DNA of 64,000 nucleotides from Schmidtea nova. Taxonomy: Eukaryota. Of the stretch, positions 165 to 35,302 are shown piece by piece; positions within the stretch are counted from its first letter, which is position 1, and each line of letters begins with the position of its first letter. A program made the translations under genes and the position numbers. The notes below the pieces were generated by a model that saw nothing but the letters and a program-made list of their open reading frames with translations, did no database searches and was not told the origin of the DNA. The stretch spans positions 83,514,001-83,578,000 of the forward strand of contig CM097883.1 in assembly GCA_044892505.1 (NCBI GenBank), read 5' to 3'.

Positions 165-636
165 TAAATATTTAGAGTGTTAATATATTGTATCGAATGA
201 CAAAGTCAAGGGAGCAATCAACAATGTTAATTAATTTTTGAGCTACTATCAAGTAGTCCGTTAAGCACCCATTGGGAGGTACCAGTTGATCAACCCACTC
301 GGGGTATATAGAAAGGGGCCAATCGCAAATGTTGGAAAGCTTTTGTGATGTGATTGATCACCACATCCCGCATTAGTAGACCAACGCGATCTTTTTGTAT
401 ATTTTGGTTGGGGAGAGAAATAGGGAAACCCTGATGAGGTAAGATGCGCGCAGAGAAAATAATAAAAATTGAATTATGACTGATCAGCGAAAGAATTAGT
501 AATAAAACAAAGAATCGAGGAATTATAGAGAAAAATAAGAGGTGCATAATCAGCTTGCATGAAATTGAGAGAACTCAGCTGAGAAATTGTAGTCGCTAGC
601 GAAGTTAAGAATTACGATTAACCGGTTAAGGAAAAG

Positions 637-1270: not shown

Positions 1271-1817
1271 ATCGTCGACGATAATGAGAATAGTGCGCAC
1301 CGATAATAGAGAAATGCGAGTAAAGCTGATTATGCGACCTAAAATAATGCATGCAAGTAGAATTGAGAAATAGGAGCTGACCGGAAAGACCGGCAGAATT
1401 AATAATTAGAGGCTAGCAGAGAGAAAGATAAAGAGATGATAAAATAATAATCGAGTCAAATGACTCAGGGAATTAGAGCGTTCGAACGACAAATAAATTG
1501 GGAGACCGCGGGAAAAATAATTGATGTATTTTAATAACCGATAGATAATTGTTATGACTAAATAGATAATTGTGACTAGTATATAGATAATTTAAATAGA
1601 CTTAAATAAAGGGGAATCTGGGAATGGGGAAAAATAATAGAAACCCAGTAATGAGAAGTCCCGTAAAAAGGGAATAAAAGCGCAACGATAACAATAGAGT
1701 ATCGTTGAAGTGACATTTGTATTTTAGATAAATCAATCAAACCAAACCAAGCAACCAAGGAAGAAAAGAATCGGAACACGATAAGACAGGAAAATTGAGT
1801 ATACAAAAGTAATCCCG

Positions 1818-7800: not shown

Positions 7801-10800
7801 TGAAAACCCTGCCCATGTGCAAAATTGAGTCAAACACTTGCCAAACCGGTATGTCAACCTTAACATACCAGATACGAGGAAAGGAATGTCAACTACAACT
7901 GTTAAAGGAAGCAGAATTCGATGAGATACAAGGGAAAACCTTCCAAGAGGAAGAAGAAGACGAGGCAGCAAGAGGAAAAATACTTCAAGACACCGTACGG
8001 GGAGAGAAAAAGATTGAAACCCGAACACAAGAAAAACAAATTAAAATGAGAAATACACCAACGGTACTAATTACCTCAGATGCAGATATCGGAATGAGGT
8101 TTGTAAAAGGAAAAACAGCCTTGAAATGCGGAGTAGCCATGTTGGAAACCAACTACCCCGGCATTTTTGTATCAAAACAAGAAGTACCTAGTGCGAAACG
8201 CAAAGTACACACGAACGATGTTAAATTACACCTGTACATGAACAATAAAATGGATTTTCTATTCCATAGAGGACAAGCGTCACTACAAAAAGTGTATTAC
8301 GATTTAATTAACAACGATTGCATATTAAATAGGGAAATATTAAAGACAAAATTAGCAGTAGCAATCACAAACCCGGATAGTGCAATGCCATTATTACCAT
8401 TAAGAGAAGGTCATTTTGGAAGGGTAGTCGGAGAGGTCATGTACGTATACATATGTAAAAAGACGAACGCAAAAGTAGCGACAATGACAAAACTACAACC
8501 AAGTCAGTGTACTAACGAACTAGAAATCGAATATAAAGGGAAAGTAAGATATGTGCAACCAGTGACAAGAATCATAAATCCAGTAAGCTTCGAACCAAAC
8601 CCTTTCAATTGCAGCAACGCATATGGACCACTATACCAAAAACCAGACGGGAATTGGGTTATGTTTCCGTCAAGAACAGAGGTACCAGCACCAAGAGAAT
8701 TTGAATTAATGCAACTATCAAAAGGAAGAAAATTTAAAGACGTAGATGTAAGCAATATGGGATTCTATAGTGCAAAGGATTTAGAAGCAGCAAGACAAAA
8801 CATACTATTTCCGGCAAGACGAGAAGCGGTGTTATCCAGTATTGTAACAATAACAGGAGGAACAAATTACCAAGGTGGACCAAATTACGAATTATTATTG
8901 TCACCGGCCCACTTTAAGAAGGCAACGGAAAACATGATGAAAGCGATGTGGGGAAGATTTTTAATATTTGGACAAATGATGGCAGGAATACTTGGTGTTA
9001 TACTAATTATACAAATAATACGGGTAATAATAACGCAAATGTTAGCCTGTTTTGACATCTATAAACGAGAAAAGAAAGTAAATTGGAAATTGGTGGTAGG
9101 ATTCTTACCATTTTTGGCTAAAACAATGGTATTACACGGTCATTCAAAAGATATTCACCGAATAAAGAGACTCCTAAAAATACTGGCAAAAATGAAAGGA
9201 ACCGATGAAGAGGTGGGACGAAAATTTAAAAAGATAATGAATAACGAGCAAGCAAGACAACAACTAAAGAAAGAGAGAAAAGGACTATGGGAAAGAATGA
9301 AAGGGTACAGAACCCAAGACGATTCCAGTGACGACGATGATGATGATAACGAAGGAGGTCAAGTATTTAAAAATCAAGTACCACAGTACGTCGAAAAGAA
9401 TCCAGCGGAAATGTGGAAGTGTTACGCACCCCCACCAACCATGTACCAAGAACCAACACCAGGGATGAGACAAAATACAATGCAAATGATGCCGATGACA
9501 AACATATATCCTATGATACCAGAAGACTATAGAACGAGACGGTGCAGAAGCGTAGATCCGCAAGGAGACTCACATACAATTGCAGTAATGTCATCAAACA
9601 CCGGTCCAGTATTAACTACAACAATCGAGATTAACGGAAGAGAAATTGAAGCGATGATTGATACAGGAGCAAATATCTCAGCAATAGATATAAAATGGAT
9701 ACCACAAGAACAAAGACGGGATATCGAGAGAACCAACGTTCATGTAATAGCATGCAGTAAAGAAGTAGTAGAAGTTGCCGGAAGATGGTGGGTAAAGATA
9801 AAACATCAAAACACAGAAATCGAAACGTACGTAGCAGTAATACCAGCACTAAGCGTACCATGCATTATAGGCACAGATTTAATGCCAGCATTATTTAAAG
9901 AAATAGTTATTGACCTGGGAACAATGAGATTGAAGGATAGGACAGGACAGATATGCGCAATAGAAGCAAAAGTAACAAGTTCGAAACAAATAATCGTACC
10001 AGCACGGAGAGAGAAAATATGTTTCGTAAAAATAGATCCTACAATAGAAGGTGACATGATCTTTGAACCCAGTAAAAGATTTGAAAAGAGAAAGTCGTTG
10101 CCAATGGCAAGAGGATTAGTGAGTGCGAATGACAACGGAGAAATCCCAATAAATGTAGTAAATTTCGATGAAGAGGATAAAATAATTTATGAAAATGAAA
10201 GACTAGGTAAACTAACTCCAATGATAGATATCGAAATACCAATAAAAGAAGGAGTAAAAGAGGAGGAACCCACCTGGAACATTGATAGCCAACTACTAAA
10301 TGAGGATCAAAAGAAACAGCTAGAAAGGTTACTGATGGAATATAAAGACATATTCGCAGCATCCGATTTAGATCTAGGGACATGCGACGTCACACTACAT
10401 ACGATTCCACTAACAGACGAAACGCCTATTGCGTTAAGACCATACAAGTTAGCTGAAGCGCAAAAATCAGTAGCAGAAGCAGAAGTACAGAAAATGCTAG
10501 ACGCAGAAGTAATTGAACCAAGCTGCTCACCGTGGCAATTCCCAGTTGTAATGGTGAAAAAGAAAGACGGAACACAACGGTTTTGTATTGATTATCGGAG
10601 ATTAAATGCGGTAACAAAAAGGGATACATACCCATTACCAGACATCAACGAGATGTTATTGACATTACAAGGAGCGGCATATTTTACATCATTGGATTTG
10701 AAAAGCGGATACTGGCAAATTAAAATGAAGGAGGAAGACAAAGAGAAAACTGCTTTCACTATCGGAAGAGACTTGTACCAATTTAGGAAAATGCCATTTG

Positions 10801-13800
10801 GACTAACCAATGCGCCAGCATCATTTCAAAGATGTATGAATTTCGTTACCCACGGCATAAAACAATGCATGGTTTACATTGACGACCTACTGATCTACTC
10901 AAGCACATTTGAACAACACATCCAAGATATCAGAGATGTATTTGTTAGATTGAGACAATGGAAACTCAAACTCAAACCATCGAAATGCGATTGGGCAAAG
11001 GAGAAAGTGACATTCTTAGGACATATTGTGTCCGCAAAAGGAAAGGAACCAGATCCCAGAAACATTGATAAAGTAAAAGAATGTCCAGTACCAAAGACGA
11101 TAACGCAGATCCAAGAATTTCTCGGATTATGCGGTTACTATAGAAAATTCATAAAGGATTACGCAGGAATTGCAAAACCAATCCAGGAGCTAGTAAAGAA
11201 AGACGTATCGTTCATATGGGGAAGCGAACAACAAACAGCCTTTGAAACATTGAGAGATAAGCTAATAACTGCACCAATATTGGTTCACCCGGACTTCAAA
11301 AAGCCATTTTTACTCGCAACCGACGCAAGTGGATATGCAGCAGGAGCAGTGTTAGGACAATATGATGACGAGGGAAAAGAGCGGGTAATCGGATATTATA
11401 GCAGAACATTCAAAAAACACGAGAAGAATTATTCAGTAACGGAAAGAGAAGCATTGGCAATAATATTAGCAATAAAACACTTTAAATATCTATTATGGGG
11501 ACACATTATATGCATAACCACGGATCATCAACCACTGGTATGGCTAGGACAACATAAGGAAACATCCAGCAGGTTGATGAGATGGGCGATGCAATTACAA
11601 GAATATTCACCAGATATAAAATTCAAATCAGGAAAAGCGAATGCCAACGCAGATTGCATGTCAAGATTAACGTTTCCAGAATTAACAGACCCAGAAGTGC
11701 AAAGAATATGCATAATGATAGCAGAGGATTTGGATTTCAGTGAGTTAAAGAAAGATCAGCAAGAGGATAAAGAACTAAGACCCATCATAGAATTCCTAAG
11801 CTCACGAAATATGGATGTATTCAAAGACAATGCAGAGTTAAAGGAACACATGAGGAAATACCAACATCGATACACAATAGAAAAAGGATGGTTATTAATA
11901 CGAGATGGAGAGAAACGATTAATGTGTCTGCCAGGTAATAGACGAAAAGAGATAATAACTCAATACCATGACGGAAAGTTGGGAGGACACATGTCCGATA
12001 AGAAAACATTAGATCGCATGAGACAAAAATATTATTGGCCAACAATGGACGAAGACGTAAAGGAATGGATAAAGAACTGTTTAACTTGTGCCACAAGAAA
12101 GGACAGTGGGAAGAAATGGAAAAATCCTTTAAAACCCATGCCAATACCAGCGGAACCAATGACTACCATTGCGATGGATGTAATAGGACCATTGCCAGAA
12201 AGTTTAAACGGGAATCAATATATACTGGTAATAACGGATTATTTGACTAAATTCCCTGAAGCATTTGCGATGCCGGATCAAAAAGCAAAGACCGTAGCAA
12301 GAATTTTAGTAGAGGAAATATGTTGTCGATACGGAACCCCGAAACAAATACTAACAGATCAAGGAACAAATTTTATGAGCGAAATATTAGATGAAGTAAC
12401 AAATTACTTCCGGATAGCTAAATTACGAACGTCACCATATCATCCGCAAACCAATGGACAAACGGAAAGATTTAACGGCACATTGATTCGAATGTTATCC
12501 AATTATGTAAGCAAACACCAAACAGATTGGGATGAATACGTAAAGCTATGTCTAATGGCATACAGAATGTCGATACACGCAGCAACAAAATTGAGTCCAT
12601 TTCAATTAATGTATGGAAGGGAATGCAATATGCCAATAGATCTTGAATATCAACCACCTTTGTCTCAATATATGGAGGAAGATGATTACGTCACCAAATT
12701 CAAAGAACGAATGCAAGAGATATGGAAGACAGCAGAACTGAACATAAAGTTTTACCAAGAAAGTTACAAGGACCTACACGATCAAAAGAAAAATGTTAAA
12801 ACAAATGATCTTAAACCAGGAGATTGGGTAATGATAGAAACCCCAGAAATAATACCAGGAACCGTTAAAAAACTACAAAGACCAGGAAAAGGCCCTTACG
12901 AAGTTATATACAAAAAGGAAAACAATGTGAAGGTAAAACTTGTTAATCGACCATTGATACGACCAATATACGTTAATACATGCAGATGTAAAAATGTACC
13001 AAAGACAATAACCACAGCGCCAGAAGAACGAATAATAACCAGATCCCAGACAGCCAGAATGAATATGCTCAGAGCAACCAATGAAAGTACCGAAGCAGAA
13101 AACAATCAACAAGAAAAAAGAAACAAGGAAATTGTACTAAAAGCCAGAGAAATAATGGGAAGATGGCATGTCAGAGACGATATATTAAGGGATATTCAGT
13201 CGATAATTAGTGATTACGCAAGGGGATTACCAACAAAACCAGTCATTTCAGAACTACTGGAAAAAATTCCAGAAATACTTTCACTAGAAGACATAGGAGG
13301 ACAACCAGCATTACATAACGCCATAAAATGGGGAGAAGTAGAGAGAGTAAAAGAATTTCTAAAAATCGCTAAGGAAACAAACCAACACCTTGGTTTTGGG
13401 AATAGCGAACAAGAAACACCATTAATGGTAGCAGCCATCTACAAATCGGATAAAGCAATAATAGACCTTTTGATAAATGCCGATTTCAACTGGACAGAAC
13501 GCGATAGAGAAAACAAAACAGTCTTGAATCACGCAATATGGAGCTCAAATCAGATAATGCTCAAACAAATAATCGAGAAGGCCACTTGGGAAATAGATGA
13601 ACTGATCAAAGGTGATATAATAAAGGAAGCAATAAAAATCGGTAACTGCAAAACAATACGCAAGCTAATAAAATGGAAAAGATCTGAAAATGATACATGG
13701 GTGTTAAATATAAACGAGGTATACAGTGAAGGACAAAACGCGTTATTACAATTCCTATTAAAATTAGTTTGTGATCAGAAAACACTGTTAATATTATTGG

Positions 13801-16800
13801 ACAGAAGAAAGATCACAATTTCCAAAAACAAAGAGGAGTGTAAATTCGAAAGCGAAAAAGAAGCATTATTCAGGAAAATTAGGGAATGGTGTGCAAAATC
13901 GCTAACCAAGTCGATAACTTACAAAGATATATCCAATTTTCAAGATAAGTACAAAACGGTGGAGGAAGAGTATGACAAACTAGTAGACATATTAAACCAC
14001 CCCGAAAAATGCAAACAATTCCTAGGTCGAAAGGAAAGAGAAAGCAAAAGGAAATTTACACCACTTTTCAGCGCAGAGGTACCATATCAAGAAAGGTTAG
14101 ATGCGATACAGGACAAAGCAAAAGAACTATTACCAGAATTCGAGAATTCTAAACATACACTGGAGATACTCGGATCAATTGTGGAAAAGGTACACGCATA
14201 TGCGGAAGGAACTTACAATGAAAACGATATGATGATCATAAAAAGAGAAATGCCAGTGACTTTCTTATTAACAAAAAATGGAGTATTGCCAATACATAGA
14301 GCCTTACGAGCAGGAAAAGATAGGAGGGTAGTCGAAATTGCACGGTTGATGCAAGATTGCGGAAGTGACATGAACATGAAAGATAAAAAGGGAGATACCC
14401 TCATGATATTCGCAGCAAGAGCGAACACAAAAACCCGAGTGTTACAGGAACTGTACGAAGCAGGTGCAGGACTCATGGGAAGAACTAACAAAGACAGCTC
14501 AATACTAGACGTAGCGTTGTTAGCGCACAATTGGGAGGTGATAAATTTCATAAAAACAATCACAAATCAGGAGGAAATAGAATACCTTACAAGGACAGTT
14601 AAAAAAGCTAGCGTACATTCCATGATGCATAACGCTGAACTAACTGAAGCAATACTCAATTGGATGAACCCAAACACCAATGAACCAGCATTCAGGATCA
14701 ACGAGTGCATGGAACAAGGCCAAAATTTGTATATAAAGTGTGCATTAATAATAAACAAATGGCCAAAGATAATAGATATCTTCATGAGAAGAAAAGATTT
14801 ACGATTCACAAACAACCCAAAGGAAACAGAACGTACGGACAAATGGAAAGAACTAATGAAAACGTACCTTAATAATTGGATAAAAGCCAAGAAAGAGATT
14901 CTAGATTGTAAATTAACCGATAAGGAAATACCTAAGCAGGCAGTAACACAAGAATATGAAGCAAGTATACTCACAACCATAACGTATGAAAAAATGATAG
15001 AAGCAATTAATGTCGAGGACGACATTTTCAACGACCAAAGGGGAGGCGACAATACAGGAAACGACGACGATAGTACTCGAGAAAATCCAGAGGATCATGA
15101 GTTATCAGATGAAGAGGACAGTGAAGAGAAAGGAAGGGACACAGAGAAAAATGATAAGAAAAATGAATTTGGGAAACAAAGAAACAACAACTATAAAAAT
15201 AAAAACGAAGCAAAAAGAACAGGCTACAAACAAACAATAAACCCATTCTTTAAACCAGAACTATTATTACTAACGGTAATCATGACCTTAATTAGTCCAA
15301 CTCAAGGGATGATATGTGAAGAAAGAGCGACAATACAAATTGGAAACGCAAAAGGAATCGAACGAGTATGTTGGTCAAAAAAGGACAAAATATCGGGACA
15401 AAATAGTCCAATGGATTGCAGGATCTCAGAATATGAACAAGAAATCATAGAGATCGATGACTTAGAGCTAGATACTTGGTACAAAATATGCACCATCAGA
15501 AAACAAAAGAATCCAAGATCACACAACACAATAGCATGTGCAAACTACCTAACGCCCAAAGTAACCATAACAATACAGCAGTCATCCAAAGGAGACTATG
15601 TTGTAGGAAAGTGTGGAAGAACAGAGACACAAGGAACAAAAAACAAGAAACCTCAGACAATAGACAGACGAACAACGCCAACTATACAAATTACCATAGA
15701 CAGGCCCGAAGTAAGAGTAACCACAAATGAAACCGAAAGAGTGACCTACCAAACAGAATTACTATGTTTAGCACTCATATTAACAATGTTAAAACGGTTA
15801 GAAGAAGGGATAGACATTGACACAATGGCAGTAACAGAGATGAACGACACCCAAAACACCAACCCAAAGTGTTGGGCCAGAAGCAACGAAGAAATTGGCG
15901 TAAGCGAAATAAAGACGAGTCGGAAAAGGAAAACAAATAAAGTAACCAAGATATCAGAAGTAAAAGCAGACAGGACGTATGAACTATGTTTACTAGAAAA
16001 AGAAAGACACAAGAAAGGAACGACAATTTGTAAAACATTTCAACCTGGGGAAACAATAAAGTTCATAAGAAGAAGAAGAAGAAATATACGCACCAAACGG
16101 AGGACAACTACAATGTTAGAGTTAACCGGAATAGAACCGGACGTCAAAGGCGTATGCTGGAAGAAGCAGGAAAAGAAAACAAACCAGAATACACCGCCGC
16201 AATGTCGAACAAACAGAGGAACAACCACAATACAGATAGAAGGGTTAGAAAGTAATCAAACGTACGAAATATGCCTGATTAGGAAAAGCGACAAAATAAC
16301 AGTAAATGAATTGGAATGCAAATTATATAAAACACCCACCAGAACAAGAGTTGGAAAGACAACGCGAAAAAGTAGAAGACAACGGAACAAAGGAAAAGCG
16401 AGGTATACCACTACCTTTAAACCTAATGGACAACAGAAAAACCAAGAAATACAAAGAAAAACCGAAAAGAATACTACAACAACTCTTATACTATGGAGAA
16501 TAGACAATAAAACGTTAGAAATATGTTGGGCAGTAGTTCAGGAACAAAAAGAAAGACAGCCACGATACTGCGAAAACGTAAAAGGAAAAGAAGAAATGAG
16601 TATCAAAAATCTGAAATTTAATAGAGAATACGAGATATGTGCGGTAGAAAAGACGGACATATTAGGAAATCAGCAGGAAAGATGCGAAACGTACTACACA
16701 CCGGTAAACTCAACGTCCAAAGGGAAAGTGAGAAAACTCGAATTTAAAGAATTAAGTCAGACAACGAAACAAATGGACGCGGAACAAGTAGTAATAGACC

Positions 16801-17201
16801 CTTACGCAAGATGGACGCCAGAAGAAGTAATTAAAGAAGTTAAAAGAAAACAACAAGAACGAGAACAATTACTAAATAAACTAAAGGGACAATACGGACC
16901 AATGATTAACCAGAGTGAAATTACGAAGATGGACGTAAACAAACAAGTTAGAGAACTAATTGGTCTAGGAATACTAGCAGCAACTATTCCAGTAATAACA
17001 GTATTATTAATAATATGGATATATGATGTATTCAACAAGAAACCAATAACACATTGGCCAGATATAAAGATTATGAACTACAGTATAGAATTACCGGAAG
17101 AAGTACAGAAAGAATTCCAAAGGAGGACGAAAGGTAAAGAATTTTGGAGACAAATAGAAGATGAAGAGCGATACGAAGGAAAGACAGTGATGGTGATATA
17201 G
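1818..17201 (+). CDS. 5127-aa Gag-accessory-Env-Pol-accessory polyprotein
   Basis: Uninterrupted ORF (open from 1785, TTG at 1818, first in-frame ATG at 2244). Contains CCHC x3, DTGA protease, YIDD RT, RNase H (TDAS...EALA...TDH), HHCC/DDE/GPY integrase and extra domains. Confidence 0.97.
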   Translation: MRKGEKSVIIKPAEKNKATKNNNQKGLKGSKARQIIIQKSIIENDKLSVTSNSSSNKENQAEPERNPISEIEVDKTNNDYIEEIEDEVEQETESDDTDNDSKASDNESAKETEIDRNSSDEPNSELETRGNESKITTDSGIEMSEPREEIKDKFSGEPFNGDASKLETFLKEFGIFVEVCKWKPETTVSRIQLYLKDSALDLYLEAKNGTNPPTSWSAIKDFFQQTFGINKVLNEAFTEFSMRKQKINESNAVYASELKKLAKLIFNQDSPINEELMAAIFVGGLRRPDIRAQVGCQGCKTIDQALETANRFELHMIGNDGRIYLAMDTAQNEQEVNLNNHIPNSQQLNRPPPQRRNEGNKVSNFGNQSNYNPQGPTKQCKTCGKLGHWQQECYQNLNCGKCGVKGHSESRCYTITCFNCGRPGHLSRNCGQRSNQRGNWQNTGNRQNYGNQPTGGNRQNYGNQPNNGNQPEYGNQPNSNNNNQNKNTTKEIHLMQEVQRLTELINNTTRGNPQTGQQQINMMRKIESENERLNRESQARHAQEWARVQREEEQKQQERERQPLRINMMRATNQANTHEKETVPEINPTNLNPTNNESRKEIVPGSEETEIEKEVETEANQEEKRMIWKKGMMVILPNGHMFRFQYNIKEEVGTLFNKVNEMAPGVTKLPREAFLKIEGAPEVKLKLTDTWENMGVVETKRNVMVIKEMEPEGIPSPVRHETRISRIFKGKMIRRRLGEIDELERKMRKVEVVDDKSESTQKAIKSETRPTENTPSEINQIKHINMLRGQAKNFSDDEEDSDVSSLAGDMLNEPEIEDKKIEVVKTPETIQVKEDEIQKLLDNALEVIYNEEFIDKKHYRKFMRAILQMNYKEWLPGREVETLSQYVGKLLKEPLHEYIILIEIKTCLPRIWIKTPLTEDIYQWVEDRLGSSYKNKFLYSQNGLVKKRTHLIETGIWPGEVTTLSICDDKREENLQEVAKEANTCFEKKIKPRLEYEKGRILRGNLNSMIEQIIPQIKKHRKELMRSEYERLKRCIECIRDTSHTRWSQISYGKVVAKMGKAMFRQGKITDLKISVELPNEDTKEIEVVADCTIKELVNVINETLLQREPEEEWEDDIIMKYNEHVLWDHDERRLYKIGIWDNHQTIHVIRMDDTPRETAKDEKRERERQKEVVHKLQQIVDIYRNWRIWPEWEDVLEELNLNRRLRTPVEKQWNERGKCWEPKAGEYEEEYGIGIEDDHKPETGRVCMVTRKAMPADLDGPETTTMWLEREKQKTEEFVEILKTNAHGKRKLVKGLADFFVVNGEDITCLRKVAKAIAEYKRVNEWCPEQLDQVIKKWRNQEFSQESPQKVHLRIVYPDQEKEEFWVGIAEKVRDIKKKLRYEPPFHLQHQGRSLDNSLEIGITPAQLDIANTLTVAAIAGQPLKLKEEKKPKGSMSTPSPMKSVMTPGTSSEQARTTPRETRERTPPEPYDVDEIFTDSDDMLEELIELTKEKDDNIFERIQELPTAIPVTNTEDEVEQEIIIEEVNEIAEEEARRANVENVQFTQEMERWLEERANEPRDVTEETGRETRLVETGTTMDKRPRGRPKMDPANVVIKSREEKRRDQWDLCLKKLNKIAETKEKETTQTYQGEEWISKTLMEILAIIDPELKKWWRINEISERAKSLHSAIAPILPELIKEKTRSNHLDWQGTTMLIKKLTEGAETDNKYLIAMAYTIYNLLTLSRGRLKPTALERHIKNTAKIIEKEIEPYIISKGGWETFTKTNQKKNQAKNMKRKFEEILGELEKEKSGTGNGKSSLNLSSIIMMMLIWMISTDGATAFEVFDCDQMALGEKYSLRGTEQCKDATPTELKTLKKRQLYHVYQEAELIRTMVRECKVYKTRFAFYCGHRHYSAIVMPGTERESVMLQGEDCEKLFKHGEVETRDRVKIRGKTGVILQQTYYVAGAITGGEGYCQGATYPIFGVAATNLVVIDTYTVELKTYEAFFDPTTGEMKTLPMCKIESNTCQTGMSTLTYQIRGKECQLQLLKEAEFDEIQGKTFQEEEEDEAARGKILQDTVRGEKKIETRTQEKQIKMRNTPTVLITSDADIGMRFVKGKTALKCGVAMLETNYPGIFVSKQEVPSAKRKVHTNDVKLHLYMNNKMDFLFHRGQASLQKVYYDLINNDCILNREILKTKLAVAITNPDSAMPLLPLREGHFGRVVGEVMYVYICKKTNAKVATMTKLQPSQCTNELEIEYKGKVRYVQPVTRIINPVSFEPNPFNCSNAYGPLYQKPDGNWVMFPSRTEVPAPREFELMQLSKGRKFKDVDVSNMGFYSAKDLEAARQNILFPARREAVLSSIVTITGGTNYQGGPNYELLLSPAHFKKATENMMKAMWGRFLIFGQMMAGILGVILIIQIIRVIITQMLACFDIYKREKKVNWKLVVGFLPFLAKTMVLHGHSKDIHRIKRLLKILAKMKGTDEEVGRKFKKIMNNEQARQQLKKERKGLWERMKGYRTQDDSSDDDDDDNEGGQVFKNQVPQYVEKNPAEMWKCYAPPPTMYQEPTPGMRQNTMQMMPMTNIYPMIPEDYRTRRCRSVDPQGDSHTIAVMSSNTGPVLTTTIEINGREIEAMIDTGANISAIDIKWIPQEQRRDIERTNVHVIACSKEVVEVAGRWWVKIKHQNTEIETYVAVIPALSVPCIIGTDLMPALFKEIVIDLGTMRLKDRTGQICAIEAKVTSSKQIIVPARREKICFVKIDPTIEGDMIFEPSKRFEKRKSLPMARGLVSANDNGEIPINVVNFDEEDKIIYENERLGKLTPMIDIEIPIKEGVKEEEPTWNIDSQLLNEDQKKQLERLLMEYKDIFAASDLDLGTCDVTLHTIPLTDETPIALRPYKLAEAQKSVAEAEVQKMLDAEVIEPSCSPWQFPVVMVKKKDGTQRFCIDYRRLNAVTKRDTYPLPDINEMLLTLQGAAYFTSLDLKSGYWQIKMKEEDKEKTAFTIGRDLYQFRKMPFGLTNAPASFQRCMNFVTHGIKQCMVYIDDLLIYSSTFEQHIQDIRDVFVRLRQWKLKLKPSKCDWAKEKVTFLGHIVSAKGKEPDPRNIDKVKECPVPKTITQIQEFLGLCGYYRKFIKDYAGIAKPIQELVKKDVSFIWGSEQQTAFETLRDKLITAPILVHPDFKKPFLLATDASGYAAGAVLGQYDDEGKERVIGYYSRTFKKHEKNYSVTEREALAIILAIKHFKYLLWGHIICITTDHQPLVWLGQHKETSSRLMRWAMQLQEYSPDIKFKSGKANANADCMSRLTFPELTDPEVQRICIMIAEDLDFSELKKDQQEDKELRPIIEFLSSRNMDVFKDNAELKEHMRKYQHRYTIEKGWLLIRDGEKRLMCLPGNRRKEIITQYHDGKLGGHMSDKKTLDRMRQKYYWPTMDEDVKEWIKNCLTCATRKDSGKKWKNPLKPMPIPAEPMTTIAMDVIGPLPESLNGNQYILVITDYLTKFPEAFAMPDQKAKTVARILVEEICCRYGTPKQILTDQGTNFMSEILDEVTNYFRIAKLRTSPYHPQTNGQTERFNGTLIRMLSNYVSKHQTDWDEYVKLCLMAYRMSIHAATKLSPFQLMYGRECNMPIDLEYQPPLSQYMEEDDYVTKFKERMQEIWKTAELNIKFYQESYKDLHDQKKNVKTNDLKPGDWVMIETPEIIPGTVKKLQRPGKGPYEVIYKKENNVKVKLVNRPLIRPIYVNTCRCKNVPKTITTAPEERIITRSQTARMNMLRATNESTEAENNQQEKRNKEIVLKAREIMGRWHVRDDILRDIQSIISDYARGLPTKPVISELLEKIPEILSLEDIGGQPALHNAIKWGEVERVKEFLKIAKETNQHLGFGNSEQETPLMVAAIYKSDKAIIDLLINADFNWTERDRENKTVLNHAIWSSNQIMLKQIIEKATWEIDELIKGDIIKEAIKIGNCKTIRKLIKWKRSENDTWVLNINEVYSEGQNALLQFLLKLVCDQKTLLILLDRRKITISKNKEECKFESEKEALFRKIREWCAKSLTKSITYKDISNFQDKYKTVEEEYDKLVDILNHPEKCKQFLGRKERESKRKFTPLFSAEVPYQERLDAIQDKAKELLPEFENSKHTLEILGSIVEKVHAYAEGTYNENDMMIIKREMPVTFLLTKNGVLPIHRALRAGKDRRVVEIARLMQDCGSDMNMKDKKGDTLMIFAARANTKTRVLQELYEAGAGLMGRTNKDSSILDVALLAHNWEVINFIKTITNQEEIEYLTRTVKKASVHSMMHNAELTEAILNWMNPNTNEPAFRINECMEQGQNLYIKCALIINKWPKIIDIFMRRKDLRFTNNPKETERTDKWKELMKTYLNNWIKAKKEILDCKLTDKEIPKQAVTQEYEASILTTITYEKMIEAINVEDDIFNDQRGGDNTGNDDDSTRENPEDHELSDEEDSEEKGRDTEKNDKKNEFGKQRNNNYKNKNEAKRTGYKQTINPFFKPELLLLTVIMTLISPTQGMICEERATIQIGNAKGIERVCWSKKDKISGQNSPMDCRISEYEQEIIEIDDLELDTWYKICTIRKQKNPRSHNTIACANYLTPKVTITIQQSSKGDYVVGKCGRTETQGTKNKKPQTIDRRTTPTIQITIDRPEVRVTTNETERVTYQTELLCLALILTMLKRLEEGIDIDTMAVTEMNDTQNTNPKCWARSNEEIGVSEIKTSRKRKTNKVTKISEVKADRTYELCLLEKERHKKGTTICKTFQPGETIKFIRRRRRNIRTKRRTTTMLELTGIEPDVKGVCWKKQEKKTNQNTPPQCRTNRGTTTIQIEGLESNQTYEICLIRKSDKITVNELECKLYKTPTRTRVGKTTRKSRRQRNKGKARYTTTFKPNGQQKNQEIQRKTEKNTTTTLILWRIDNKTLEICWAVVQEQKERQPRYCENVKGKEEMSIKNLKFNREYEICAVEKTDILGNQQERCETYYTPVNSTSKGKVRKLEFKELSQTTKQMDAEQVVIDPYARWTPEEVIKEVKRKQQEREQLLNKLKGQYGPMINQSEITKMDVNKQVRELIGLGILAATIPVITVLLIIWIYDVFNKKPITHWPDIKIMNYSIELPEEVQKEFQRRTKGKEFWRQIEDEERYEGKTVMVI
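2244..3110 (+). other. gag: Gag capsid plus three CX2CX4HX4C zinc knuckles (2955-3107)
   Basis: FSGEPFNGDASKLETFLKEF...; CKTCGKLGHWQQEC, CGKCGVKGHSESRC, CFNCGRPGHLSRNC. Confidence 0.93.
3711..6070 (+). other. Three putative ubiquitin-like domains (about 3711-3930, 5031-5275, 5868-6070) in the Gag-Env spacer
   Basis: LKISVELPNEDTKEIEVVADCTIKELVNVINE...IIMKYNEHVLWD..RRLYKIGIWDNHQTIHVIR and KVHLRIVYPDQEKEEFWVGIAEKVRDIKKKL...LQHQGRSLD follow the beta-grasp ubiquitin pattern; the first copy is weaker. Confidence 0.6.
6564..6587 (+). other. AT-hook motif
   Basis: KRPRGRPK. Confidence 0.7.
6720..7110 (+). other. Bcl-2-like domain inside the polyprotein
   Basis: Helical domain ending IEPYIISKGGWETF (BH2-like, cf. 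WIQDNGGWDAF), with a BH1-position segment DNKYLIAMAYTIY upstream. Confidence 0.72.
7221..9135 (+). other. env: Envelope glycoprotein, chuvirus-like / class III (gB-type), with internal signal peptide and C-terminal TM
   Basis: Signal LSSIIMMMLIWMISTDGATA|FEVFDC; CKVYKTRFAFYCGHRHYSAIV; LYMNNKMDF; DCILNREILK; GEVMYVYIC; CTNEL; GFYSAKDLEAARQNILFP; TM WGRFLIFGQMMAGILGVILIIQII. These match chuviral glycoprotein motifs as recalled. Confidence 0.82.
9600..9930 (+). other. Retropepsin aspartic protease
   Basis: IEAMIDTGANISAID...CIIGTDLM. Confidence 0.95.
10430..11660 (+). other. pol: Reverse transcriptase and RNase H (Ty3/gypsy type)
   Basis: RFCIDYRRLN, YPLP, LDLKSGYWQI, MPFGLTNAPASFQ, YIDDLL, FLGH, ATDASG, YSVTEREALA, TDHQPL. 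Confidence 0.98.
11950..13000 (+). other. Integrase (HHCC, DDE, GPY/F)
   Basis: HDGKLGGH...CLTC; MDVIG; TDQGTNF; NGQTERFN; KGPYEV. Confidence 0.97.
13290..14560 (+). other. Two clusters of ankyrin-like repeats after the integrase
   Basis: GGQPALHNAIKWG, QETPLMVAAIY, NKTVLNHAIWS, NGVLPIHRAL, KGDTLMIFAA, DSSILDVALL. Confidence 0.85.
15255..17201 (+). other. C-terminal type I membrane protein: signal peptide, 4 FN3-like repeats, TM (16956-17024), cytoplasmic tail
   Basis: PELLLLTVIMTLISPTQG|MIC; four units of CW...I..L....YEIC...C (e.g. IEGLESNQTYEICL); TM LIGLGILAATIPVITVLLIIWIY. Confidence 0.7.
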
Positions 17202-17326
17202 GAGGCGGGATATGACTGTAAATAATAGTGTAAATAACAATGCATTACCGTAATAGTATGGGTATCGATATTATAAAAATATAAAAAGAGAAATCGAGAA
17301 AACGATTAATGTATATAATTTAGAAA

Positions 17327-17683
17327 ATGAACGAACAGGAAGAAATAGCAGAAACTACTATGGCTATGCGATGGAAAGCCCAGTGTGACATGTTAATACG
17401 AACAATCAACTCACTACAAAATCAGTTAATTGAGAAACAGAATTTGTTATCCGAAAGTTATAATAATAGTTTTGAACAACTCCACAGAATCGAGGAGCAA
17501 CAGAGATTGATAACGCAACTTACCAGAGAGAATCAAGTGATGAGCGACATAAATCAGAGACAAGCAATAGAGATAGACCGTTTAACAATGGGAGAGACAG
17601 AAGAAGCAGAGGATGGATGGACAAATTGGGCAATAAACAGATCAGAAAATGACCCAGAACCAGATTCAACAAACGAGCCGTAG
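17327..17683 (+). CDS. Accessory ORF A, 118 aa coiled-coil protein of unknown function
   Basis: ATG-initiated, heptad-rich, same codon bias as the polyprotein, inside the element. Confidence 0.7.
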   Translation: MNEQEEIAETTMAMRWKAQCDMLIRTINSLQNQLIEKQNLLSESYNNSFEQLHRIEEQQRLITQLTRENQVMSDINQRQAIEIDRLTMGETEEAEDGWTNWAINRSENDPEPDSTNEP

Positions 17684-17774
17684 ATAAATAAAGCGAAAAA
17701 TTGTAAATATGTAAAAACAAAAACAAGAAAAATCAAAAAATAGATAACAAATCAAGTGTATATATCATTGTAGA

Positions 17775-19157
17775 ATGAATACAGAAGGAAAAGCCGAAGA
17801 GCGGATAATCGAAATTTTGAGAGCCGAGAACAGGAAATGGAGTCAGAGACTCACTTGTGTAAATTGTAAAAACATAATATTGAAACCAAGACAAACCCTA
17901 TGCGGATGCAGAGTATGTACCAAATGCATACACGAGTTAAGTATGAAAAGACCACCAGAATGTCCAGAATGCAAAGAAGGACAAATAAAATTCGAAGAAA
18001 CCGGACCAGATAGAGCAACTCAGAGAGAAATCATGAACACGAAAACCGAATGTATAAATCAATCATGTATATGGCAAGGACAAATACGCGATCTCGAGAA
18101 CCATCTGGAGAACTGCGAAGAGAAGAGAACTGAATGTAACAAATGCCAACAAAAAATAACTATAAAGAATAAAGAGCAGCACAAAGATGAATGTAAAGAA
18201 GAGGAAAGTCTATGCGAATATTGTGGAACTCGAGAAACGAGGAGAAAGATCGAAGAAGAACACCTGAATGTAAAAGAGGAGAAAGTATGTAGACAATATG
18301 TAGGAATATGTTCAAACGAATGCGAGATAACGGTAGAAGTAAAATTACAAGAACATTGGAAAGTGTGCACGGAGAAACCAAGGGAATGTCCTTATAACAA
18401 ACAGGGATGTATGGAGAAAAGAACGCAAAAAACCATGAAACAACATCTGGAGGAAGCATTGCTAAAGCATGCGGAAATGACAAACGAAGCAACAAAAGAA
18501 ACCGAACAAACAATCAAAAAATTAGAAAGAGAAATAGAGTCACACAAGATAATGGTAAACCTACTGTTGGAAACCAGAGAGCAATTCGAACTAACACGAG
18601 AAAAGATGGAGGAAAAGATAAAAGCTATCGAAGAACTGGCTAAAGGAATGAAAATCCAGTACAACAAACTCACCCAGGATACCGAGGAAAAGTTACCAAT
18701 CGCACCCTATGTGTGGAAAGTGACAGATTTTAGAAACAAATTAACAGAGGCCAGAAATATGACGAAAACAGCAGTAATAAGCCCACCATTTTATTTATGG
18801 AGAAACGGAGCTAAAGTGAGATTGAAGCTATACCCAAATGGAGACGGAAGAGGACGAGGAACACATGTGTCAATATTTTTCTCGCTATGTAAAGGAGAAT
18901 ACGACGACCTAGTAGAATGGCCCTTGAAAGTAGGAGTCATTGTAAGAATCAGAAGTGTAACAAAACCAGTAGAAAAATTCTTTGAGACAGAGAAACATGC
19001 GAGTACGAGCGAGAAACCAACCACAGAATGTGGATTAGCAGCGAGAGAACCGATGTTTATAACGAAAGAAAGCCTATGGGAACGATTATATGCAGACACC
19101 CTATACATAGAAATGGAAAGGAATGAGAAAGCGGATAGAAAAGGATGGTTGACGTAA
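17775..19157 (+). CDS. TRAF homolog (RING, TRAF zinc fingers, coiled coil, MATH), intronless, element-borne
   Basis: RING CVNC...CGCRVC..C...CPEC; TRAF Zn fingers; MATH VWKVTDF...SPPFY...LYPNGDGRGRGTHVSIFFSLCKGEYDDLVEWP. Confidence 0.93.
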   Translation: MNTEGKAEERIIEILRAENRKWSQRLTCVNCKNIILKPRQTLCGCRVCTKCIHELSMKRPPECPECKEGQIKFEETGPDRATQREIMNTKTECINQSCIWQGQIRDLENHLENCEEKRTECNKCQQKITIKNKEQHKDECKEEESLCEYCGTRETRRKIEEEHLNVKEEKVCRQYVGICSNECEITVEVKLQEHWKVCTEKPRECPYNKQGCMEKRTQKTMKQHLEEALLKHAEMTNEATKETEQTIKKLEREIESHKIMVNLLLETREQFELTREKMEEKIKAIEELAKGMKIQYNKLTQDTEEKLPIAPYVWKVTDFRNKLTEARNMTKTAVISPPFYLWRNGAKVRLKLYPNGDGRGRGTHVSIFFSLCKGEYDDLVEWPLKVGVIVRIRSVTKPVEKFFETEKHASTSEKPTTECGLAAREPMFITKESLWERLYADTLYIEMERNEKADRKGWLT

Positions 19158-19271
19158 CCAGAAAAGTGATCATGTAAATAATATGTACAGTTAAATACCC
19201 AAAAAATTATTATATAAACAAAAATAACTGATATATAAACCGATTAAAATTTTCATTCTGTAATTATAGCA

Positions 19272-20333
19272 ATGGGAAATATCGAGGTATGCTTACAGGA
19301 AATTACGATGCATCAAGCAGAAGCGATTAGCGATCATCTAGAACAGATTGAAATATGGGTCAATGCATATTATGGAAAGCAAGAGGAGATAGAGAGACAA
19401 GCCGAATTATTAAAAGAAGCGGAAAGATCAAGTCAAAGAAGTCGAGAAAAAATAGAAGAAGTATACAAAATGCTACAACAACAAAAGGAATATTACCAGA
19501 GAATGATGAAAGAGCGACGAGAGGAAAGAGACAGACAGCAGATGGAAGCTGAACACAAGATGTATTCGATTACAGAACAAGCAAGATACTGGAAGAAAGA
19601 AGCGAAAGAATCTTACGAAAAAGCTAGAGAAATAATAGAAAGGACAGCTTATAGTGATGACTGGAAGTTATATAAAGAGATCGATGAACTAAAAGACGAG
19701 TTAGAACAAAAAATCAACCAGGAAGTGTTAAATAAAAGATGGAATACAAAAAGACAGCAATTTATCCGCGAACAAGCAAAGAAAATTAAAGGACTAACCT
19801 ATCAAGTTCAAAGAATGGGAGAAGAACTAGCTAATCAAGAACAACTGAAAACTATGCTCACCGGAATATGGAATCAGAAAGAAGAAGAGATGAAGAGAGA
19901 TATAAATGGTTATCAAGGGGTGATCACTCAAAAGAAAATAGAGCTAAAAAGAACCAGGGAAAGGTTAAAGGAAGAGAAACAAAGTTACGAGGAAAATTTA
20001 ACGAATTTGATGAAAGAAAACGAAGAATTGAAACAGAAACGAGTAACAGTATCAGTAATACCCAAAGAAGCAAGTATAACGGCAGCCGTAACAAAAATGA
20101 TAAAAGAAGACGAACAAAAGACAAAAGTAATCGAATTAGAGAAACAAATAGAAACATTAACAGAACAAGCAAATTACCTAGAATATTTGCTAGACGAGGA
20201 GATCCAGATATCTCACATGTATCGAGATGAAGTCGAAATGTGGAGGAGCAGGGTTGTTTGGATACCACTCCCCACAAACCAAGTAGAGCCTCAGGACGAA
20301 GGTTTCTATGAACCAAATGAGACGATTGTGTAA
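19272..20333 (+). CDS. Accessory ORF C, 353 aa long coiled-coil protein
   Basis: E/K/Q/R-rich heptads over most of the length; inside the element. Confidence 0.8.
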   Translation: MGNIEVCLQEITMHQAEAISDHLEQIEIWVNAYYGKQEEIERQAELLKEAERSSQRSREKIEEVYKMLQQQKEYYQRMMKERREERDRQQMEAEHKMYSITEQARYWKKEAKESYEKAREIIERTAYSDDWKLYKEIDELKDELEQKINQEVLNKRWNTKRQQFIREQAKKIKGLTYQVQRMGEELANQEQLKTMLTGIWNQKEEEMKRDINGYQGVITQKKIELKRTRERLKEEKQSYEENLTNLMKENEELKQKRVTVSVIPKEASITAAVTKMIKEDEQKTKVIELEKQIETLTEQANYLEYLLDEEIQISHMYRDEVEMWRSRVVWIPLPTNQVEPQDEGFYEPNETIV

Positions 20334-20414
20334 ATAAAGCGGAAAATATATTTTTGTAAATAATTGTATGAAATGTAGTGTCAAATTGTATTGACCTATC
20401 TGTAAAGAAACAGT

Positions 20415-20987
20415 ATGAAAAAGCTCAGAATACCGATATTCCTATACCTAATAACAATCACCCTACAAAGAGAAGATCTTCAACTCACAGAGAAGGAGCT
20501 ACGAGCCCTACCCGAGAAAACCTATCAAGAACTAGATAAACTAATCAGCGAAGCAACACAAGAAATCACCCAACTTCAACAGATAACATCAGACAACCCA
20601 AACGATGAAAAATTTCAACAGGTCCTATATGAACATCGAATCAAATTGAAAACAATCAGAAAAACCCTAAAAGAAGGTCGAGAACCCATAAAAAGCTTAG
20701 CCCAAGCAGAGATAGAATATCAAGAAAAATGGATCATCGCAATTATAATAATCCTTGCACTCAGCGTGACCATTATCGCGATCACAATCCTCATAACATC
20801 ATACCGAGTGAAGATCCTAAAACAAAAACAAGTCATCCTGAATCGAACAACAATACAAGACAGCAGAACCCAAAAGCGAATGGGAAAACACCTAAACCGA
20901 ATCCAAAGCCACTACGAACTACGAACAATCAGCGAAAGAACCCCAATCCAATCCAATACCAATCATGAAATCAAAGAGCTTGTGTAA
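20415..20987 (+). CDS. Accessory ORF D, 190 aa predicted single-pass membrane protein
   Basis: Hydrophobic N-terminus IPIFLYLITITL, helical region, TM WIIAIIIILALSVTIIAITILIT, basic tail. Confidence 0.75.
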   Translation: MKKLRIPIFLYLITITLQREDLQLTEKELRALPEKTYQELDKLISEATQEITQLQQITSDNPNDEKFQQVLYEHRIKLKTIRKTLKEGREPIKSLAQAEIEYQEKWIIAIIIILALSVTIIAITILITSYRVKILKQKQVILNRTTIQDSRTQKRMGKHLNRIQSHYELRTISERTPIQSNTNHEIKELV

Positions 20988-21157
20988 AACTGATACATTA
21001 CATTCACTTTATGTATGATCCACGTACAATTAACAATAATATGACTTTGTGCTTAAGTATAAAAACTTATCACCTTATGTGATTCTTTGTGTATATGTAA
21101 ATTGACATTTATCTGCTTAATTTTTATGTATGATGATATAGGTGTAAATGTATAATT

Positions 21158-21192
21158 AATTGCGGGACGCAATTTTAGGGGTCCCCGAGTGA
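21158..21192 (+). promoter_or_regulatory. Plus-strand priming (PPT-position) region before the 3' LTR
   Basis: AATTGCG-GGA-CGCAATT hairpin then TTAGGGGTCCCCGAGTGA directly before TGTTGGG; not a pure purine tract. Confidence 0.6.
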
Positions 21193-22524
21193 TGTTGGGC
21201 CAGCCAAATAGAGGGAACAGTGAAATAAAAGTAGATTAATTAAAACAAAAAAGAGAAAAATAAGGTAAAAAGGGGAATATTTATTTATTAAAAGAAAGGA
21301 ATAATATAGTAAAAATATAGAATAACTAAGTACAAGCTATAAATAAAAATAAATGAATTTATAGATATTAACGGGCCCAGGAGACATCTAAAAACAAATA
21401 AAATACAAATAATAATAATTAAAACCAAATAAAAGTACTTGTTATTGAATAATTGTTTTTGAAACCCGGACCTCCAAGGAAGAATACAATCTAAAAAATA
21501 AAAATTAATTAGAATCAAAAACAATAATTAAAAACCACCATGAAACTGGCCAAACCTGATTGGTCAGTCTAGACACGACTGATCAGTATAAATACTGATC
21601 AGATTTTTCATAAAATCAGACTTTGGTAGACTAGACGTTTGACTAGAGTGAGACTTTAGTAGACTTTGTTAGACTGAAATTTAGACTTTAACTAAAAATT
21701 CGCATTAGATTGCACATTGCCCCGACGACGATCACCGTTTAGACCGATTTTGATCAATAAATTTTCAGAATTCAATTGAGGTATTTTTGGTACATTATTT
21801 GATGTTGTATTCATATGTCATTATCATATTATAATATATTATTCATCTCATTATGATTTACGTTATATTTAAACTATTTAAACTATCATATTAATCTCGC
21901 GCCGTTGGGAGCTTTAGGTTCCCAAGGTGTTCGTCCGTGGCGTGGTGCTCGAGGGCTCCACACACGGTAAAGTAATAAATAACAAAGCATAATTTTATTA
22001 GTGATGGTGGAGATTTGCACATGGGACACCCAACAAATCCGGGGAATTATTTTCCGATCATTTTAGCTACAGAGGGGACGAAAATTTTTTGATAACGCTT
22101 AAAGATATGAAAGAATTTTTTTTTTAACCGTGAGGAGGCACAAATTGTTCACCCTCCCCAGAGCACAATGGCTAGATAAACGTCTAATAAACCTTAGAAA
22201 AATTAGGTCGACCGCATTTGGTACAAAAGAGCGTTTTTCGAATAAGCTAGGGATACATGACGGGAGAGAGCTTCCGTTTTGAGGTATCAATATTTTGAAA
22301 ATCCAAGCAGACAAATCACCATTTTTTCGTCTATAATATTGATCGTAAACAGATAAAGCTAAGTAGATACGAGAGTAATGTATACGTAACGAACGACAGT
22401 TTCTCTTGATTTCAGCTAAGGGGTAGGCAAATAATAAAGATATCACGATGAGAGATAACATTTACTATGATTAATTATTGATGTAAATTGTAACTATTAT
22501 AAAATTCAGCATCGTTTTGGAATC

Positions 22525-23001
22525 ATGACTAAGCATAGATACACTATCAAAAAACGACAAGAACGAGCCCGAGTTAGCCCATTAAAGCCGGCTCCTTTCG
22601 AGATTTTACAGCAAATCCATCAAAAGATGTGGGCATGGCGCCGAGAGCTCGAAACCGCCTGTCCATTTACAGTATGGGACCATCCACGGCACCACGTCTG
22701 GTACCGGGGATGCGCTAGTTGGCCAATCATTCCAGATGAGGAATTCGAATCATGGCACGCCGCCTGGTTCATCATGATGTTGGACAAAGGAGGATTCCCG
22801 AAATGTGTGATTTATTGGGGGTTCATTCCAGCCTCTACCTTCAAGGAATTGGGGTTCAAGTTCAATACAGCCATACGACCCCTTCGAGAAGCTGAGAGAA
22901 TCCGCTTCCAGCAAGCCTCCTCCAATAGCACGGGAATCCACACAAATTTGCAAATTAAATCGATATTTTCGTATCGGGGAAAAACGACCGGAGATGGATA
23001 A
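22525..23001 (+). CDS. LTR-embedded ORF 1, 158 aa Trp-rich protein of unknown function
   Basis: ATG-initiated, GC-richer than flanks, open for 158 codons in AT-rich context. Confidence 0.55.
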   Translation: MTKHRYTIKKRQERARVSPLKPAPFEILQQIHQKMWAWRRELETACPFTVWDHPRHHVWYRGCASWPIIPDEEFESWHAAWFIMMLDKGGFPKCVIYWGFIPASTFKELGFKFNTAIRPLREAERIRFQQASSNSTGIHTNLQIKSIFSYRGKTTGDG

Positions 23002-23319
23002 TTGAATAAATGGCCACCTATTTTTGAATTTAATAAATGTTTTAAAGAAGTCTGAAGTGTCTCATTTTGTTAATAGTGTTGTCATGTAGATTTAGTATTG
23101 TAGTTGTTATAGTCATTAGGAAATTCATTTATTAATACAAAATTAGTTTAATAAATCTTTTGAGTCTTCAATGGTTAGATAGTTAAATACTTCTGTAAAG
23201 AACTCGATAATTAAAAACATTAGTATACATCTCGTTTAATAATAATAAAGAGTAGACTAAATAAAATAACATTGTTGATAGGTCCTCCAGCGAATTTATC
23301 GTTATAATATTCAGACAAC

Positions 23320-34767: not shown

Positions 34768-35302
34768 AGGGGAGATATGTTGGATTATTTTAATTTAAAA
34801 TAATCAACATTTTTTTAAATAAAAGTTTGTTTAAATAAAGAAGAAAAGATGAAGAATAGAAATTTAAAAAATTAAATAAATATTATTTCTTGTCATTTTA
34901 TTATATTTTAAGAATTATGAATGACTCGAACAATAATATTAACAATATTAATTATAATATTAATAATATTAATAATATTAACNNNNNNNNNNNNNNNNNN
35001 NNNNNNNNNNNNNNNNNNNNNNNNNNNNNNNNNNNNNNNNNNNNNNNNNNNNNNNNNNNNNNNNNNNNNNNNNNNNNNNNNNNNNNNNNNNNNNNNNNNN
35101 NNNNNNNNNNNNNNNNNNNNNNNNNNNNNNNNNNNNNNNNNNNNNNNNNNNNNNNNNNNNNNNNNNNNNNNNNNNNNNNNNNNNNNNNNNNNNNNNNNNN
35201 NNNNNNNNNNNNNNNNNNNNNNNNNNNNNNNNNNNNNNNNNNNNNNNNNNNNNNNNNNNNNNNNNNNNNNNNNNNNNNNNNNNNNNNNNNNNNNNNNNNN
35301 NN

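Follow-up and report, generated by a model that had tools for sequence, protein, structure and literature searches.

The 64,000-nucleotide (nt) stretch of Schmidtea nova DNA analysed here (contig CM097883.1 of assembly GCA_044892505.1, positions 83,514,001 to 83,578,000 of the forward strand; hereafter the window) carries what is, judging from its domains, a Burro-like giant Ty3/gypsy element, in which a gag-env-pol polyprotein is followed by four accessory open reading frames (ORFs A to D). Our subject is the four short spacers, S1 to S4, that precede these accessory ORFs, each of which has a Pumilio-type element at a nearly constant distance past a stop codon and ends in a sequence resembling a splice acceptor directly ahead of the next start codon (Table 1).

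The polyprotein, of 4985 amino acids (aa), gave Pfam matches in the order zf-CCHC, Monjiviricetes_fusion, RVP, RVT_1, RT_RNaseH and rve; its Gag portion has three CCHC knuckles, ankyrin repeats (Ank) were matched at 3690-3779, and the TRAF and MATH domains were found in a separate ORF. Motifs of the BIR, BCL2-like and dUTPase-like kinds gave no Pfam match at E 0.01; in Burro elements some of these were found by HHpred only (PMC6431247). The window has a single unit resembling a long terminal repeat (LTR), and a 5' LTR copy was not found within its 64 kb.

Table 1. Features of the element, numbered from the first base of the window (UTR, untranslated region)
Feature	Positions	Strand	Remarks
Candidate major 5' splice donor	436..445 (GT at 439-440)	+	AG/GTAAGA; sole donor-like word in a scan of 1-2300
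Candidate leader splice acceptor	1712..1727	+	Branch-like GTGAC and TTTGTATTTTAG; from sequence
Polyprotein	2244..17201	+	Gag, mononegavirus-type fusion glycoprotein, protease, reverse transcriptase, RNase H, integrase, ankyrin repeats
Spacer S1	17202..17326	+	125 nt
S1 stop-proximal element	17217..17236	+	Two TGTAAATA (17217, 17229), 16 nt past stop
S1 acceptor tract	17306..17323	+	Branch-like TTAAT, TGTATATA (17310), TTTAG; 3 nt before ATG
Accessory ORF A	17327..17683	+	118 aa; without convincing family
Spacer S2	17684..17774	+	91 nt
S2 contents	17687; 17702-17713	+	AATAAA; TGTAAATA-TGTA, 19 nt past stop
S2 3' part	17757; acceptor ending 17773	+	TGTATATA; TTGTAG acceptor, 1 nt before ATG
Accessory ORF B	17775..19157	+	460 aa; TRAF-like (zf-TRAF, MATH)
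Spacer S3	19158..19271	+	114 nt; TGTAAATA-N3-TGTA (19173-19187), 16 nt past stop
S3 acceptor	ending 19269	+	TGTAATTATAG, 2 nt before ATG
Accessory ORF C	19272..20333	+	353 aa; without family; stop inside TGTAAATA (20329)
Spacer S4	20334..20414	+	81 nt; AATAAA (20333) with T-rich downstream
S4 stop-proximal element	20355-20368	+	TGTAAATA-N2-TGTA, 22 nt past stop
S4 acceptor, weaker	ending 20413	+	TTGAC ... AACAG, 1 nt before ATG
Accessory ORF D	20415..20987	+	190 aa; one strongly hydrophobic segment near residue 107; stop inside TGTAAA
Terminal UTR ahead of LTR	20988..21189	+	Six TGTA, three TGTAHAT 7-mers, zero perfect 8-mers
Probable 3' LTR	21193..22035	+	TGTTGGG...CCCAACA; TATA-like 21587, AATAAA 21756; right boundary uncertain

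Pumilio-type sites in the spacers

An earlier note on this DNA had reported eight perfect matches to TGTAHATA, the Pumilio response element (PRE), in four spacers totalling about 410 bp, where its rough composition estimate gave well below one. A position search found all eight where the note had placed them, all on the + strand, with the spacers summing to 411 nt (125 + 91 + 114 + 81). The shuffled-spacer check was run on 416 nt, i.e., the spacers plus five bases that complete the site on the stop codon at 20329, and against the eight sites observed it gave means of 0.12, 0.36, 0.84 and 1.48 for mono-, di-, tri- and tetranucleotide shuffles, respectively. Eight sites were reached by none of the shuffles (20,000, 20,000, 10,000 and 10,000 in the same order), and seven were reached once, in a tetranucleotide shuffle. 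As a post-hoc control we searched the shuffles for the best gapped 8-mer of any kind: with low-complexity and overlapping words allowed it reached eight in 219 of 3,000 dinucleotide shuffles, and with such words excluded it did not exceed five in 1,500 dinucleotide or six in 1,500 trinucleotide shuffles. The five ORFs (18.3 kb) contain one sense-strand site where 1.2 are expected. The enrichment of TGTAHATA in the spacers is real.

What did not hold is the treatment of all eight sites as one PUF-type class. That reading is the best fit for the stop-proximal sites, given their strand and their variation at position 5, but the sites at 17310 and 17757 lie within acceptor tracts and that at 20329 lies on a stop codon. 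The PUF-type class is thus five sites after stops plus the one on a stop, and 17310 and 17757 are better read as acceptor sequence, because both overlap acceptor tracts and 17310 is broken in a sister lineage. Two of the ORFs, C and D, terminate in TTGTG-TAA-A, so that TGTAAA spans the stop of each (20329 and 20983).

The stop-proximal sites share a further property, in that TGTAAATA is followed within a few bases by a second TGTA. This composite, TGTAAATA-N0-4-TGTA, has four matches in 64 kb, one per spacer (shuffle mean 0.15), and when motif counts were preserved only 41 of 50,000 permutations placed it in all four spacers. The tight range of its offsets past the upstream stop (+16, +19, +16 and +22 in S1 to S4) has P ~0.002 under uniform placement, with a window picked post hoc. 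The spacers are without a stable fold, none scoring better than its shuffles (z -0.35 to -1.24). In three of the four spacers a GCG word shortly precedes TGTAAATA (GCGGGA, GCGAAA and GCGGAA, within 17202-17215, 17692-17700 and 20337-20346), which we take to be E2F-like.

For comparison, a background was assembled from the best 80 of 519 loci found in metagenome contigs with an integrase query (27-39% identity, many from two samples), of which 72 had 125 nt past the stop and 51 a plausible true stop. One 8-mer followed within 125 nt at three of these 51 pol stops and the composite at none; the composite was absent from all 601,038 nt of the distant gypsy loci. The stop-proximal composite is not a generic gypsy trait. 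Four of the distant loci (L002, L003, L006, L007) have an extra ORF after pol, of 197 aa at 52-56 nt or 482-490 aa at ~445 nt, and these have no motif and no YAG abutting the ATG.

Acceptor-like spacer ends and a candidate leader donor

Overlooked in the earlier note was that each of the four spacers ends in YAG 1-3 nt ahead of the next ATG. The same placement was found at 54 of 446 control ATGs of the element, and for all four spacers together it arose in 2 of 20,000 shuffles that preserved mononucleotides and in none of 20,000 that preserved dinucleotides. The tracts upstream of the spacer-end YAGs are also T-richer than those of the element's other YAGs (P 0.0006), three of the four ranking within the top 16 of the 631 YAGs between 1400 and 21190. 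The leader acceptor at 1727 is among the four most T-rich of the 631, the most T-rich of the element's acceptors, and together with the donor at 439 it brackets tandem repeats at 636-1268. The two TGTATATA sites overlap the acceptor tracts of S1 and S2, and the S3, S4 and leader acceptors have a bare TGTA there. The words TTAAT, GTGAC and TTGAC ahead of the acceptors resemble branch points. Within the ORFs, donor-like words are depleted ~1.5-2x relative to 300 synonymous shuffles (AGGTA 11 vs 20.2, GTAAG 9 vs 15.2). These sequence features make it probable, and we hold this with more confidence than any other functional claim made here, that the spacer acceptors are used in splicing.

What might read the stop-proximal element

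The variation among the TGTAHATA sites is confined to position 5, and the sites occur on the sense strand only. Words that a PUF protein alone would accept number 2 against 0.14 expected (42 of 5,000 shuffles), and sense-strand TGTA occurs 16 times against 5.55 expected, with TACA at 1 against 1.86; this bias is judged by shuffle expectation, because a 50:50 binomial (P 0.0003) overstates it. The earlier note had also pointed out that TGTAAATA fits a Forkhead site. The Forkhead consensus is RYAAAYA, with GTAAACA as its optimum. All six GTAAATA do fit the consensus, but the spacers contain no GTAAACA and no reverse-strand site, and other Forkhead words are no commoner than expected (2 vs 2.15), so that the variation seen fits PUF better than Forkhead.

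The UGUAHAUA consensus and the role of DjPum in planarian stem cells are documented (PMC5855632). Based on strand, position and sequence, the stop-proximal element is likely to function at the RNA level, and if it does, a PUF protein is the favoured reader, by a modest preference. A role for CFIm is weakened because AATAAA precedes the UGUA pairs and because S. mediterranea poly(A) sites are without upstream UGUA, CFIm59/68 not having been found in that species (PMC5068929). A role in protection from decay is kept in view because of the fixed stop distance and the predicted 3' UTRs of 0.8-4.6 kb, by analogy with PTBP1. As to the relatives of this element, BURRO1 RNA has been located in differentiated tissue, and neoblast transposons were largely unchanged after smedwi-2 RNA interference (PMC8532177); the pattern is compatible with repression by a stem-cell PUF protein, and is explained in that paper by other PIWI proteins.

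Copies and sister lineages

Further copies were sought in contigs from four runs of one study; the runs look like DNA, and depth in them is not a copy number. Contigs identical to the window had depths of 340-420 beside others at 4-20 in all four runs, and for this reason we consider the element a family with many copies and diverged lineages. Of 741 substitutions and 79 indels, 40 and 12, respectively, were listed, and among these no site other than 17310 is changed. Among the loose ends, one from another copy has ATTGAT for the window's ATTAAT, which keeps a branch-like word, and has TGTA in place of the TATA-like word at 17281, a word that is changed in two other lineages in all. In ORFs B-D, 13 of 23 substitutions were synonymous and 11 of 23 fell at third positions (from the same 40 of 741 rows); because of the synonymous share, the accessory ORFs look selected. 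No joint with GT..AG ends was found among 15 of 29 listed, nor any loose end at an acceptor among 24 of 1,171 listed. A related element with spacers was found neither in viral contigs nor, with an env query, in metagenome contigs; the single viral-contig locus (L001) matched over 28 residues, consisted of densely packed short ORFs and was set aside.

Depth was still high beyond 22035, and what follows the LTR-like unit (within 21193-24000) is either the 5' region of a tandem copy or part of a longer LTR. ORFs at 22525-23001 and 23320-23904 in this region have TTCAG 15 and 5 nt ahead of their ATGs, respectively, and the latter ORF has TGTAAAATA at +12. At 22005, inside the TG...CA boundaries of the LTR-like unit, lies TGGTGGAGAT, which we take to resemble a tRNA-Ala primer site, and the TATA-like word of the LTR lies in the loop between the 9-bp CTGATCAGT arms of an inverted repeat (21578-21602).

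A model for expression of the accessory genes

In complex retroviruses, alternative cis-splicing generates mRNAs that end at the LTR poly(A) site. A comparable arrangement is the simplest model for the accessory mRNAs here: the leader donor (candidate 439) would be joined alternatively to the spacer acceptors, making five acceptors with that of the leader, and the products would share a 3' end near the LTR AATAAA at 21756. Each spacer would then be a two-ended junction cassette, stop / PUF-type element / acceptor / ATG. Its 3' end would be the splice acceptor 1-3 nt before the next ATG, and its 5' end, 16-22 nt past the stop, would offer TGTAAATA and a second TGTA half-site, most likely to be read by a host Pumilio/PUF protein. 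Given their common 3' end, the mRNAs would carry a graded dose of perfect sites at or downstream of the stop, with 8 for the polyprotein, 5 for A, 3 for the TRAF ORF, 2 for C and 0 for D, and such a gradient might translate into graded repression, decay or granule targeting that depends on PUF, the direction in which it acts being our inference. The model builds on what is established here, namely the enrichment, position and strand of the motif, the acceptor-like ends and the identity of the element by its domains; as a whole, with spliced accessory mRNAs and a stop-proximal PUF-type element, it remains tentative, and we put its probability at about 0.42.

Several observations weigh against it. 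The S4 acceptor is weak (T-richness rank 112 of 631). Each of the four spacer acceptors (P 0.04 for these), and the leader acceptor too, has a TGTA no more than 16 nt away, which hints at a UGUA-binding splicing or processing factor over a cytoplasmic PUF protein, and the TGTA that are not part of an 8-mer show no enrichment of their own (8 vs 5.2, P 0.11). Besides the motif, S2 and S4 have a further 17 nt in common (0 of 500 shuffles), so that the spacers are not fully independent and duplication accounts for part of the recurrence. The terminal UTR has 7-mers in place of a perfect site, leaving the last ORF, D, without an 8-mer. In a sister lineage a 4-nt deletion at 17315 falls inside the 17310 site, in contigs whose depth of 360-410 about equals that of the window-identical contigs, with 44 more differences in the contig concerned outside those listed; the deleted site would equal the end of the leader acceptor, provided that no other base there differs. 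Finally, repression in stem cells would be an odd trait for a selfish element to select.

Alternatives to the model

The alternative that survives best, though we think it unlikely, is an operon-like arrangement, in which spliced-leader (SL) trans-splicing at each acceptor and 3'-end formation in the spacers would yield monocistronic mRNAs with short 3' UTRs, each with a PUF-type site. The spacer lengths, 81-125 nt, agree with the operon spacing of ~100 bp in Macrostomum (PMC8629364) and the median of 99 bp in Schistosoma (PMC12582326), the gypsy-type Cer1 is known to be SL1 trans-spliced (PMC3315495), and the AATAAA at 20333 has a T-rich stretch downstream. However, the spacers hold no excess of poly(A) hexamers (2 AATAAA where 4.0 are expected, and 4 of the four planarian variants where 5.4 are expected), and both AATAAA, at 17687 and 20333, are upstream of the motif with its UGUA pair. 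The UUNYAG trans-splice motif (PMC12582326) is matched by the acceptors of S2, S3 and the leader, but not by those of S1 and S4. A flatworm leader, moreover, ends in an AUG (PMC12582326) that would be in frame at one of the four acceptors and would open an overlapping upstream ORF of 23-41 codons at the other three. Added to this are the presence of a good cis donor at 439 and the full-length genomes that internal cleavage would cost, and overall we hold cis-splicing to be about twice as probable as trans-splicing.

Next in order, and also unlikely, is the proposal that UGUA itself is the recognised unit, bound by a nuclear or termination factor (a CFIm25-like protein, a splice regulator, or a protector from nonsense-mediated decay like the stability element of Rous sarcoma virus, RSV), with the PRE likeness partly incidental. 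A paired TGTA past every stop, a TGTA before all five acceptors and 3' UTRs of a predicted length prone to decay would suit such a factor, and protection by PTBP1 within 50 nt of a stop is documented (PMC4764554), but it is the full 8-mer, not bare TGTA, that carries the enrichment, the S. mediterranea poly(A) data speak against CFIm, and the excerpts of PMC4764554 hold no PUF role in decay protection (0 matches for 'Pum').

Third, and improbable as well, is that the cassette has no present function, the spacers having descended from one duplicated junction and the word having been kept by descent in T-rich, A-rich noncoding DNA. The 17 nt common to S2 and S4 and the site lost in the sister lineage are in keeping with this, as is a weak A-rich likeness that persists when the motif is masked (S1/S2 P 0.014, S1/S3 P 0.03). 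Against it, the likeness is limited to islands with the rest diverged, the flanking ORFs are unrelated, and the offset from the stop is kept. A more far-reaching variant, which we regard as quite doubtful and which is drawn by analogy, combines an SL-resolved operon with a PRE-laden, many-copy RNA that would titrate Pumilio in flatworm stem cells, as a NORAD-type sponge; if true, the retroelement would tune stem-cell fate while delivering a captured TRAF. Least probable, and by our estimate very much so, are DNA-level internal promoters, in which Forkhead sites (GTAAATA) and TATA-like words would drive each accessory gene: TATAWA words are somewhat frequent (8 vs 4.06, P 0.05) and lie at a plausible distance in S1 and S3, but the Forkhead evidence is lacking in the ways set out above, all six GTAAATA are preceded by T, neither TGTATATA qualifies as a Forkhead site, two other lineages differ from the window at the TATA-like word at 17281, and the acceptors are left unexplained.

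Other features of the element and the window

The polyprotein extends past the integrase (13000-17200) by ~1,400 aa with ankyrin repeats, hydrophobic segments and three Cys-spaced repeats that resemble an extracellular domain. A 3865-aa protein (P0013) has the same gag-env-pol layout, and likewise has a membrane segment after the integrase. Upstream, the 516 nt at 1728-2243 contain zero ATG in any frame, and the gag frame, after a stop at 1782, stays open from 1785 as far as the ATG at 2244, giving a stop-to-stop frame of 5138 codons, near the 5,140 aa given for a D. tigrina element (PMC6431247). A comparison of ORFs A and C ruled them out as paralogs. Among Atlas neighbours, ORF C drew generic coiled-coil proteins only and ORF D none; all seven window proteins queried were absent in exact form from the protein collection; positions 1-25000 gave no Rfam match; and a search for tRNAs found none.

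Elsewhere in the window, a second, ordinary gypsy fragment (RNase H-integrase, 603 aa) lies at 32956-34790, its stop abutting a purine tract and the start of an LTR with no 3' UTR. A host-like intronless innexin is found at 44929-46098, and an ORF at 60830-61606 fuses a ubiquitin-like domain to a Paf67/eIF3L fragment (Pfam).

Relation to known systems

The element belongs, as a variant, to the known Burro-like kind. With the Burro/GYPSM1 giant Ty3/gypsy elements of planarians it shares a ~5,000-aa polyprotein, an in-frame mononegavirus-like env between gag and pol, three CCHC knuckles, ankyrin repeats, MATH/TRAF, accessory ORFs, tandem repeats and many copies (PMC6431247). The placement of TRAF differs, being in a separate ORF downstream of pol in the window, inside the polyprotein in S. 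mediterranea and in an upstream ORF in D. tigrina (PMC6431247). Two LTRs and a total of >30 kb are typical of Burro/GYPSM1 elements; one LTR-like unit lies in the window. The excerpts of PMC6431247 contain nothing on accessory-ORF expression or spacer motifs of Burro elements, and the literature searched (the original Burro paper and supplements, including those of PMC8532177, being outside its scope) showed no PREs, splicing or repeated stop/PRE/acceptor/ATG cassette in Burro elements.

PREs in viral RNA are already known (PMC12687793, PMC12441121). HSUR1/2 of Herpesvirus saimiri (PMC12687793) share with the spacers clustered, perfect, sense-strand 8-mers in an unstructured, AU-rich parasite RNA, and NORAD (PMC5855632) shares the clustered perfect 8-mers; here, in contrast, one composite occurs per gene junction, at a fixed stop distance, in a predicted coding retroelement RNA. 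Complex retroviruses and Cer1 of Caenorhabditis elegans (the latter in PMC3315495) produce, as is predicted here, subgenomic mRNAs from an LTR element while skipping host splice sites for genomic RNA, but here four serial acceptors abut ATGs after a 15-kb ORF, and env lies in the polyprotein, unspliced. The SL operons of flatworms (PMC8629364, PMC12582326) have similar spacing of ~100 nt and an acceptor right before the downstream gene; the spacers here differ in having no poly(A)-signal enrichment, in that three of the four acceptors would place a leader AUG out of frame, and in lying inside a retroelement, which needs full-length RNA. In the RSV stability element (PMC4764554), too, a protein-binding element stands just past a stop ahead of a very long 3' UTR, with CU-rich PTBP1 sites there and a predicted UGUA(H)AUA site here.

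The spacers provide exact coordinates for four predicted subgenomic mRNAs and for a candidate host regulator. Should the PUF control proposed here hold, a retroelement would have wired a stem-cell RNA regulator to every one of its gene junctions, with a predicted dose gradient; should it not, the acceptors would still define the expression plan of the element.

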